Part shown: positions 34,966-37,417 of the stretch, piece by piece | How the letters are laid out: every line of letters begins with the position of its first letter | Position numbering within the stretch: the first letter of the stretch is position 1 | Assembly (NCBI RefSeq): GCF_058153355.1 | Contig: NZ_CM177019.1 | Direction: 5' to 3' (one strand) | DNA length: 64,000 bases | Made by a program: the position numbers and the translations under genes | Notes under the pieces: generated by a model | Databases searched by the model: none | Told to the model about the DNA's origin: nothing | Seen by the model: the letters and a program-made list of their open reading frames with translations, nothing else

Positions 34966-36298
<1,333 letters not shown>

Positions 36299-36318
36299 AA
36301 CTTAGTTCGTTTTAAAGA

Positions 36319-36346
36319 TTCTGCAGACACTGTCTGCAGAATTCGA
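36319..36346. repeat. Palindrome of the CAGAC-N3-GTCTG family (copy A), just 3' of yhcH
   Basis: ttctgcagacactgtctgcagaattc; related to the three palindromes inside yhcG. Confidence 0.6.
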
Positions 36347-36367
36347 AACCGCTGAAATTAACGGCGT

Positions 36368-37234
36368 CTATAGCCTTCCTCTAGCACCGCCTGTGTTCGA
36401 ACGAGTTCGGCGGTGGAAAAACAGCAGATCGACACGAAACCAGTTGTCATCAATGCGTAACCTTCGCTGCCGACCAACAAAGGCAAAATCATCCCCAAGT
36501 TCCAGCATTAAATCCATCAGGTGATTGATCAGCGCCTCCTCAAAATCGGATTCTGAGTATTCATCTTTCAATTCCAGAAATTCGAGCACAAAGGGATCGC
36601 GTATCGCCTGTTGCGGAAGAATATGCGTCTCGGCAGGAGCGTGTTGTTGCAGCATGGCTGATTTGTCATGTGACAGTAGTGTTCGCTCATAAAATTGGGT
36701 CGCAATTTGCCGCTCTAGCTGGCGGACAGACCAACCACAGCGGAGCGCCTCTTTTTCATAAAAGCTGCGGGCGTCAGCGTTTTTAACGGAAAGTAGACGG
36801 ACGTAGGTGGACCAAGGCAGGGGGAACGATTTGGCAGACAGCGTCTGCCAAATCTTTGCCGATGGGAATTCTGCAGACGGTGTCTGCGGAATTCCCAATG
36901 GTGTTAATTCGCCAGACACTGTCTGGCGAATTTCAACATGTTGAAAAAAGAGGTAAAAAAGCCTCATTTGGCGTAAGTTTTTTGCAGAGAACCCACGCTT
37001 ATACCTTAGACTTAAATCCTTTGATAGTCGCTTGATTAGCTGCGCACCATACGCAGCTCTGGCCTCGCCACCTTGTTCAAATTCGACAATTCGTCGGCCA
37101 ATTTCCCAGTACGTCGCGGTCATCAGCGCGTTAACGCTACGTACCGTTTCCGTTCGGGCGCTATCGACCAGATGAATAATGCCGTCGTGGATTTGCTGGT
37201 AGCCTGCTGTGGTTCCTTCTGAGAGCGATTCCAT
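36368..37234 (-). pseudogene. yhcG: yhcG-like DUF1016 / PD-(D/E)XK nuclease-family gene, apparently truncated near the 3' end
   Basis: 288-aa ORF MESLSEGTTAGYQQIHDGIIHLVDSARTE... runs to ...RIDDNWFRVDLLFFHRR then gives 12 unrelated residues and a stop; the following ExK nuclease motif is absent; K-12 YhcG recalled as about 375 aa. Confidence 0.5.
36830..36932. repeat. Three tandem perfect palindromes (CAGAC-N3-GTCTG cores) inside the yhcG coding sequence
   Basis: tttggcagacagcgtctgccaaa (36830-36852), gaattctgcagacggtgtctgcggaattc (36866-36894), aattcgccagacactgtctggcgaatt (36906-36932); each encodes I-x-Q-T-x-S-x-E/K on the minus strand. Confidence 0.7.
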
Positions 37235-37417
37235 TATCTTTCCCTTTATATGGCGCAGTGTTGAATAATGGAATCAGCTATACGCCGGGCATCTGCCGGT
37301 AACAATCCAGATGTGCGTATTACATTGGTTTTCTTCAGATTATGCGAGGCGCTTTCCAGAACGAAAGGAGAATTTCAGCGCCGACTCTTTTCTGAGGAGG
37401 CGGCGCTGGGACAGAGC

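Follow-up and report, generated by a model that had tools for sequence, protein, structure and literature searches.

We describe a short DNA palindrome in yhcG, a gene of the YhcG/DUF1016 family of PD-(D/E)xK nucleases, starting from a stretch of Escherichia coli DNA of 64,000 nucleotides (contig NZ_CM177019.1), here called the window. It is characteristic of the YhcG/DUF1016 gene family as a whole, in many bacterial phyla and in some archaeal genomes. In our judgement there is about an even chance that it is a DNA element prone to form hairpins or cruciforms and kept symmetrical by templated correction from one arm to the other. Its conservation, the covariation of its arms, the locking of its codons and the rearrangement joints are the directly observed parts of the case. 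Full-text searches of the literature on yhcG, DUF1016, the candidate defence gene model PDC-S02 and coding palindromes found no description of the palindrome, and the coding palindrome of the yhcG family is apparently undescribed.

Palindromes at the yhcG locus and in its gene family

The core CAGAC-N3-GTCTG (CAGACNNNGTCTG) has four exact matches in the 64-kb window, at 36324, 36835, 36874 and 36913, all of them at the yhcG locus. Shuffling gives an expectation of 0.03 matches, and none of 100 shuffles reached four. A sequence-only reading of the window had reported four perfect palindromes around this core. All four are real and three are perfect, while the second intragenic copy carries one mismatch.

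The three intragenic copies are read on the minus strand. Pal1 (36828-36854, GATTTGGCAGAC-agc-GTCTGCCAAATC) is perfect with 12-bp arms, which are 15 bp in other E. coli strains, and encodes (K)IWQTLSAK(S). Pal2 (36864-36896, GGGAATTCTGCAGAC-ggt-GTCTGCGGAATTCCC) encodes GIPQTPSAEFP and has 15-bp arms with a single T.G mismatch (plus strand) at the seventh pair out from the 3-nt loop; the 6 bp beside the loop are perfect. Pal3 (36906-36932, AATTCGCCAGACA-c-TGTCTGGCGAATT) is perfect, with 13-bp arms, and encodes EIRQTVSGEL. The peptide pattern I-x-Q-T-x-S-x-E/K proposed for these copies is found in each of them, as IRQTVSGE, IPQTPSAE and IWQTLSAK. Their starts are exactly 39 bp apart, and the three copies are therefore a 13-aa tandem repeat, an array of three 39-bp units with one palindrome each (36825-36941, minus strand).

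The fourth copy, palA (36318-36342, ATTCTGCAGACA-c-TGTCTGCAGAAT), is perfect, with 12-bp arms and a 1-nt centre, and is located in the spacer between nanQ (yhcH) and yhcG. As the sequence-only reading had it, this copy lies outside the open reading frame (ORF) just past yhcH, and it shares its arms with the second copy, the two having ATTCTGCAGAC in common. The distance to palA is 20 nt from the nanQ stop and 12 nt from the ancestral stop of yhcG. The minus-strand sequence of palA, FQRFRILQTVSAES, is similar to the linker of the other yhcG allele. The copy is kept in E. coli and forms a stable hairpin on either strand. Its position fits a bidirectional terminator; a terminator scan called none at palA and does not support a canonical terminator there. 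The sequence-only reading had proposed a check of whether palA is the 3' end of the nan transcript; this is unconfirmed, as there is no U-tract after palA on the nan strand, the tails being UUCGAAAC (nan strand) and CUUUAAAAC (yhcG strand).

A spacerless 16-bp perfect palindrome abuts pal3 (TTTCAACATGTTGAAA, 36931-36946, minus strand) and codes for FQHVE; its arms TTTCAA..TTGAAA are kept in the other orthologues compared, e.g. those of Salmonella, Citrobacter and the second E. coli allele. The whole window contains eight perfect hairpins with arms of at least 10 bp, three at the yhcG locus; of the rest, most are flanked by an A-run and a T-run, as terminators typically are. Because the palindromes are symmetrical, the open antisense frame across pal2 and pal3 (36856-37035, plus strand) encodes a similar peptide (GILQTVSAEF...IRQTLSGEF). 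If the segment between two palindrome centres were inverted, the reading frame would be kept as long as the centres are a multiple of 3 apart.

At the same spot, palindromes with other arms are present in other E. coli alleles and in Salmonella, Citrobacter, Kluyvera, Pseudocitrobacter and one further enteric. The arms are ATTCTCCAGAC/GTCTGGAGAAT and AATTGTGCAGAC/GTCTGCACAATT in the 370-aa E. coli allele and ATTCCGCAGAC/GTCTGCGGAAT in Salmonella. Compensating arm changes among these close relatives are non-synonymous, and the residue preceding Q changes in concert with those that follow S (P..AE, R..GE, W..AK, L..GE, V..AQ). E..R is a further covarying pair in the family.

To obtain an unbiased sample, 80 DUF1016/YhcG loci were fetched by means of two peptide patterns taken from the nuclease domain at the C-terminus. 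Their identity to E. coli YhcG is 37-66%, and they span Proteobacteria, Bacteroidota, Firmicutes, Cyanobacteria, Acidobacteria and metagenome-assembled genomes (MAGs) of DPANN archaea. The linker was defined as the ~200 bp before the (L/P)(S/P)W(S/T)HY motif, and a perfect hairpin as arms of at least 8 bp around a loop of at most 7 nt. Such hairpins occur at 4.26 per kb in the linker, 0.24 per kb in the rest of the gene and 0.36 per kb in the flanks, and with arms of at least 12 bp the values are 1.9 versus 0.03 per kb. The density in the linker is 18-63 times that of the rest of the gene, and 65 linker hairpins are observed against 2.3 in codon-shuffled linkers. With a mismatch-tolerant criterion 60 of the 80 loci pass; four more were missed by the regular expression for the motif, one of them with 20-bp arms, and most of the remaining loci keep 6-7-bp remnants.

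The consensus of the palindrome is (A)ATT-nnn-CAGAC-N1-3-GTCTG-nnn-AAT(T), normally read as I-x-Q-T-x-S-x-E/K, and its centre falls at codon position 1 in 80 of 81 cases. Other cores in the family are GAGAC, GAATC, CACGC, AACGC and TACCC, each with a matching partner arm, and they give the peptides ISETVSRK, ISESLIRK, HALRD, IVNAARS and IRYPMGSE. A restriction site inside the core (GACNNNGTC) was rejected as the explanation, as the many lineages with these other cores are still palindromic. For 8 of 13 distant homologues with several copies, the tandem copies are 39 bp apart.

Viral contigs were scanned by an exact 16-base pattern, which gave 38 loci. About 25 of them have a tblastn match to YhcG, spanning the palindrome in about 23, and the homologues are 30-50% identical to the E. 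coli protein. The arm positions left free by the search pattern are mostly complementary all the same. The remaining viral-contig loci look like ordinary terminators or DUF1016 relics.

The sequence-only reading had proposed a genome-wide search for the motif. A genome-wide motif family is not supported: blastn with palA finds at most six places per genome in 5426 E. coli genomes, none on plasmids. A dispersed repeat family was rejected on these counts and on the location of all four window matches. Near-identical 27-bp hairpins (CAGTTATTAAGRATTACTTAATAACTG) downstream of DUF1016 genes in two unrelated Bacteroidota MAGs (L082, 3222-3282; L126, 3625-3651) may form a repeat family of their own.

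Constraint on the nucleic acid

Codon usage within the palindrome departs strongly from that of the genes that carry it. The Ser codon is TCT in 75 of 78 [QE]-T-x-S motifs (96%) versus 14% in the same genes, and the Thr codon is ACA in 72% of these motifs versus a background of 23%. In 79 aligned hairpins 83.8% of the cells are paired, and 237 double-change cells are counted compared with 91 in shuffles, a count that is partly circular as the table was built on hairpins chosen for pairing. Therefore, the unbiased density figures given above carry the main weight. At the most variable pairs (columns 8-10) GC, CG, UA and AU interchange, with one to three unpaired sequences of 79 per pair.

The palindrome is also read in another frame, as EFARQCLTN at two loci (L036 and L026), as PAEFATQCVANSAG at L083, and also at L111. 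In the AlphaFold model the repeats are located in coil between two helices, with no helix or strand for residues 97-125 and a predicted local distance difference test score (pLDDT) of ~48-62 over residue blocks 101-130. The loop encoded by the palindromes is predicted to be disordered. The TCT locking, the covarying arms, the frame changes and this predicted disorder together argue that the constraint is on the nucleic acid, not on the protein; what is held constant is symmetry or base pairing, which the loop can accommodate. The suggestion of the sequence-only reading that the symmetry goes beyond codon need is thus upheld by the Ser codon, by the non-synonymous covariation of the arms and by the readings in other frames.

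Rearrangements and gene context in E. coli

The yhcG alleles of 349, 362 and 375 aa have one, two and three units, respectively, with several different junctions, and one copy-number junction recombines pal3 with pal1 at the core. The units are in frame and head to tail, and their number is polymorphic between strains, i.e. they form a coding tandem repeat of the variable number of tandem repeats (VNTR) type. The alleles with one and three copies differ by 78 bp in length; the classical second yhcG allele of the lineage-specific polymorphism assay (LSPA-6), a lineage typing scheme for O157:H7, is presumably also 78 bp longer. The amplicon-length alleles published for yhcG in this scheme are 394 and 392 bases (PMC8733641, PMC3514354). 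These typing papers treat the same gene region as a length marker, and the palindrome and its conservation in the family are not described there.

A BL21-type allele is present in 726 of the 5426 E. coli genomes. Here, 471 bp of unrelated DNA takes the place of the region that starts immediately behind nanQ and runs up to the outer edge of pal1, and the joint is exactly at this outer edge. The 471-bp segment (L006, 1549-2019, strain D7; also in BL21) replaces palA and the 3' two-thirds of yhcG. It carries a 101-aa ORF annotated as 'transposase' for which no match was found in Pfam or NCBIfam. The idea that the segment is a mobile element targeting the palindrome was rejected, as the ORF is unmatched and the segment is single-copy at the yhcG locus.

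A fifth member of the family, palG, is present in K-12 MC4100 (L132, 8665-8689, ATTCGCCAGAC-aca-GTCTGGCGAAT), 14 nt after the gltD stop, and is absent from the window. In the ~90 nt that follow palG, a decayed yhcG linker with stop codons is barely recognisable (best tblastn E = 0.031). The arms of palG are perfect despite the stop codons in this adjoining relic. Similarity beyond the palindrome is weak, and palA and palG may be relics. In strains that lack yhcG, nanQ and gltD are separated by 67 bp with one palindrome, whose left flank is that of palA and whose right flank is that of palG. Everything between palA and palG appears to have been lost from these strains in an event at the palindromes.

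Identity between the 370-aa and 375-aa E. coli alleles is 96-100%, apart from a patch of ~300 bp centred on the palindromes, where it drops to 53-86%. The patch covers gene positions ~211-540 (window ~36695-37024); in the 370-aa allele it shares 90-96% identity with Pseudocitrobacter, suggesting a gene-conversion tract imported from another genus. A hybrid palindrome of cryptic Escherichia clades carries CGG in place of the CGC of a recent E. coli hybrid; the difference is synonymous and removes one of two mismatches.

The palindromes mark a rearrangement hotspot in E. coli. The recombination hotspot proposed by the sequence-only reading is supported by the copy-number variants, the deletion and replacement joints at palindrome edges and the conversion patch centred on the palindromes. 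Many of the PDC-S02 hidden Markov models (HMMs) in PADLOC are N-terminal fragments that end at ~101-111 or C-terminal fragments that start at ~122-141 (YhcG residues). From this clustering of ends, genes or gene calls often break at the palindrome region. The breaks are either real or an artefact of sequencing or assembly.

The window has nanE-nanK-nanQ on the plus strand, followed by yhcG, convergent on the minus strand, and then gltD and gltB. The nanQ gene (35834-36298, plus strand) ends 20 nt before palA, and the spacer from its stop to the ancestral yhcG stop (36358-36360) is 59 bp. The yhcG gene (36358-37234, minus strand) starts at 37234, and its frameshifted ORF ends at 36368. When it is aligned with two complete E. 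coli alleles, the joint of a 251-bp internal deletion, which had escaped the sequence-only reading, falls at 36407/36408. This copy is a pseudogene because the frameshifting deletion takes out the core of the PD-(D/E)xK nuclease domain. The best E. coli matches to it, including one at 99.0%, all have the extra 251 bp.

The full-length E. coli allele matches DUF1016_N (PF17761) and YhcG_C (PF06250) with 146 and 191 bits, at cut-offs of ~33, which places it in the family. In the window copy YhcG_C is matched over profile positions 1-71 of 157 only. The DUF1016_N match covers 166 residues for a profile of 137 positions, and the palindrome array lies in the interrupting loop. Among the PADLOC models yhcG matches PDC-S02, a candidate defence gene, at 2.5e-135.

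The gap between yhcG and gltD in the window is 183 bp (37235-37417). The K-12 fimbrial cluster gltF-yhcA-yhcD-yhcE-yhcF (L132, 1495-8704) is missing from the window and from strain EC42405. At the yhcG start an 11-nt inverted repeat (37227-37237 / 37265-37275), kept in K-12, pairs the 5' untranslated region (UTR) with the AUG and the upstream purine-rich stretch (-16.8 kcal/mol, z = -1.9), and it may block the start of translation. The yhcG 5' UTR is also overlapped by the antisense transcript G0-10703 described in the literature (PMC7967276).

Explanations, related systems and significance

The palindrome lies in sequence that codes for a permissive loop of the N-terminal domain of the nuclease, and we propose that its two arms pair with each other on a single strand while the DNA is replicated or repaired. 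A templated (template-switch) correction would then either revert a mutation or copy it to the other arm, and this would keep a near-perfect palindrome while the sequence drifts wherever the tolerant loop allows. In E. coli, template switching at quasipalindromes is a well-established source of mutations (PMC7202029). The same pairing would also promote slippage and breakage and make the site recombinogenic. The unit is duplicated in tandem at a 39-bp period, and palA and the K-12 palG appear to be solitary copies left at rearrangement joints, with their hairpins now just past the stops of nanQ/yhcG and gltD. Both the correction mechanism and the fragility are parts of the proposal that we infer. 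A selected role for the palindrome structure is possible in addition. Outside the yhcG frame, the case for self-maintenance consists of the perfect palG arms and the CGC/CGG difference that cuts one mismatch of the hybrid palindrome.

Several observations weigh against templated correction as the full explanation, next to the partial circularity of the covariation count. Correction alone would have to hold a palindrome of 25-33 bp at one site across phyla. The inner CAGAC/GTCTG is conserved in sequence (47 of 81), and an outer ATT with AAT opposite is found in 49 of 59 arms of at least 11 bp, i.e. the sequence and not the pairing alone is conserved, which needs either selection on the peptide in one arm or a sequence-specific reader. 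Imperfect versions can be long-lived, as a G.G mismatch in IQQTLSGES is common to Citrobacter, Kluyvera and a third genus, and the hybrid palindrome of the Escherichia clades keeps one mismatch. At the innermost position complementarity is no greater than base composition predicts, so symmetry reaching into the would-be loop was dropped as a means to discriminate between models. Finally, palA and palG are located where terminator-like hairpins could be selected, and they are not clean neutral controls.

The palindrome may be a functional cis element tied to its own nuclease, either a cruciform or hairpin target, i.e. a self-targeting, conversion-driving, homing-like cassette, or a conserved regulatory hairpin that gates expression. 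We hold this broader possibility only tentatively. For the regulatory form, hairpins in the mRNA would hold down the translation or processing of a nuclease that may be toxic, or would serve in autoregulation as binding sites for a protein, possibly YhcG, and selection on RNA pairing would keep the arms complementary. The 136-nt mRNA segment does fold as three hairpins (-65 kcal/mol, z = -9.75), the covariation is strong, and the element is inside the transcribed gene, at a fixed position and in a fixed frame, in nearly every member of the family. However, sense-strand mismatches show no excess of the G.U-compatible type (8 G.T versus 11 A.C), G.U pairs are far fewer than is usual in an RNA helix, and the solitary palA and palG are perfect outside the yhcG reading frame. 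These points favour a process at the DNA level that treats both strands alike, although an RNA wobble signal could be masked by correction of the DNA. No Rfam covariance model matched either, the best scoring 19.6 bits against a gathering score of 100 with all E-values above 0.7. We regard the mRNA hairpins as a doubtful explanation. For the target form, the palindrome, extruded as a cruciform or hairpin, would be what the YhcG-type nuclease recognises or uses as its cognate substrate, with breaks at or close to its own gene leading to gene conversion, cassette exchange or homing-like spread, and with the variable triplet between ATT and CAGAC as an allele-specific determinant. The nuclease domain resembles NucS/EndoMS in a fold search, and the archaeal Holliday-junction-resolvase and YraN-like folds described by Kosinski et al. 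(PMC1189080) point the same way; a PDB sequence search gave no match. The conversion patch centred on the palindromes, the joints exactly at palindrome edges, the one palindrome kept at the empty site and a triplet that is hypervariable yet always paired would all fit. Against this, the gene's own copies would be cut too, and ordinary palindrome fragility accounts for the same joints. Family-like solitary copies nearby are found at only ~4 of the 80 sampled loci, which also led us to reject flanking cognate sites as a general rule (the model of REP-associated tyrosine transposases, RAYTs). We consider a cognate substrate unlikely.

Spread by a small mobile palindromic element, of the kind of the Rickettsia palindromic element (RPE), the palindromic amphipathic repeat coding element (PARCEL) or a miniature inverted-repeat transposable element (MITE), would agree with the variable copy number, the solitary copies outside genes, the few copies in other frames and an arm, ATTCGCCAGAC, that is identical in E. 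coli and in homologues ~36% identical to E. coli YhcG. We find repeated in-frame insertion of this sort highly improbable. The palindrome keeps to one position, one frame and one gene family, all places in the E. coli genomes fit the yhcG locus, neither target-site duplications nor a transposase partner are seen, and the exact 39-bp spacing fits slippage duplication. For the repeated insertion of a palindromic unit put forward in the sequence-only reading, the better description is a 39-bp coding unit, long resident in the family, that was duplicated in tandem. We give least credence to operator sites for a dimeric regulator, or to a repeat selected at the protein level with the DNA symmetry as a by-product, even though the conserved outer ATT/AAT and inner CAGAC/GTCTG look like two half-sites and the I-x-Q-T-x-S peptide motif is widespread. 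Selection on the peptide can neither fix TCT among six Ser codons nor survive a change of frame, and the loop is predicted to be disordered. As operators, the sites would be in coding DNA and across phyla without a common regulator. The protein-binding sites suggested by the sequence-only reading are not supported: the 3 bp between the two blocks differ among tandem copies and stay complementary, a pairing that a dimer on duplex DNA does not need, and this argues for pairing of the arms rather than read-out of the sequence. From their coding location, the covarying triplet and the spread across phyla, the palindromes do not look like transcription-factor operators, and to our knowledge none of the known E. 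coli operator consensus sequences (LexA, MetJ, CRP and others) fits.

Among the related systems are the quasipalindrome template-switch hotspots of E. coli (Ripley; Lovett laboratory; PMC7202029). These and the yhcG palindrome are short inverted repeats able to form hairpins, with arms made or kept complementary, and the hotspots offer a mechanism for coupled changes in both arms. However, the hotspots are laboratory mutational sites in arbitrary genes, whereas the yhcG palindrome persists at one homologous position across phyla. RPE and PARCEL (PMC2996958) are likewise translated DNA with dyad symmetry, an intact ORF, tandem or variable copies and a tolerant host protein. RPEs are 100-150 bp long and found in many unrelated genes, and PARCELs encode amphipathic repeats of 25 residues in membrane proteins, whereas the yhcG unit is 25-33 bp within a 39-bp repeat, in one DUF1016_N loop only, with no sign of dispersal. 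A unit present in many unrelated genes is not what we find: the frame is fixed in 80 of 81 cases and the viral-contig matches are mostly YhcG. The coding palindromes in the mitochondrial DNA of Nematomorpha (PMC6649704) are also perfect inverted repeats in coding sequence that keep both structure and ORF. They are up to 284 bp long, both arms code for conserved protein, and they are restricted to one animal lineage. The yhcG palindromes are short and lie in a loop predicted to be disordered, and the symmetry of the DNA prevails over the protein sequence.

Repetitive extragenic palindromes (REPs) and bacterial interspersed mosaic elements (BIMEs) with their RAYT share with the yhcG palindromes the hairpin-forming symmetry and the solitary copies just past stop codons. 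In K-12 there is also a nuclease-type gene flanked by cognate palindromes (palG ... yhcG ... palA). REPs are extragenic, GC-rich and imperfect, with hundreds of copies per genome. The yhcG palindromes number about five at most, all at one locus, three of the four window copies are intragenic, and instead of a RAYT (a Y1 transposase) the neighbours are nanQ, yhcG and gltD. In being short, at a fixed position, in one family and across phyla, the yhcG palindrome is apart from the nearest published phenomena.

For E. coli, the palindromes account for the structural diversity of the nan-yhcG-glt region, i.e. the O157 length marker, the BL21-type truncation and the joint in yhcG-less strains. They may also explain the abundance of YhcG fragments ending at ~100-110 residues in databases and HMM libraries. 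The yhcG palindrome is a natural test case for how long templated correction alone can keep a short palindrome. YhcG/DUF1016 is a very large uncharacterised nuclease family, with 24,608 representatives of 50%-identity clusters, and a candidate phage-defence system. A paired DNA element at one coding spot in nearly all sampled members gives a testable handle on this family.

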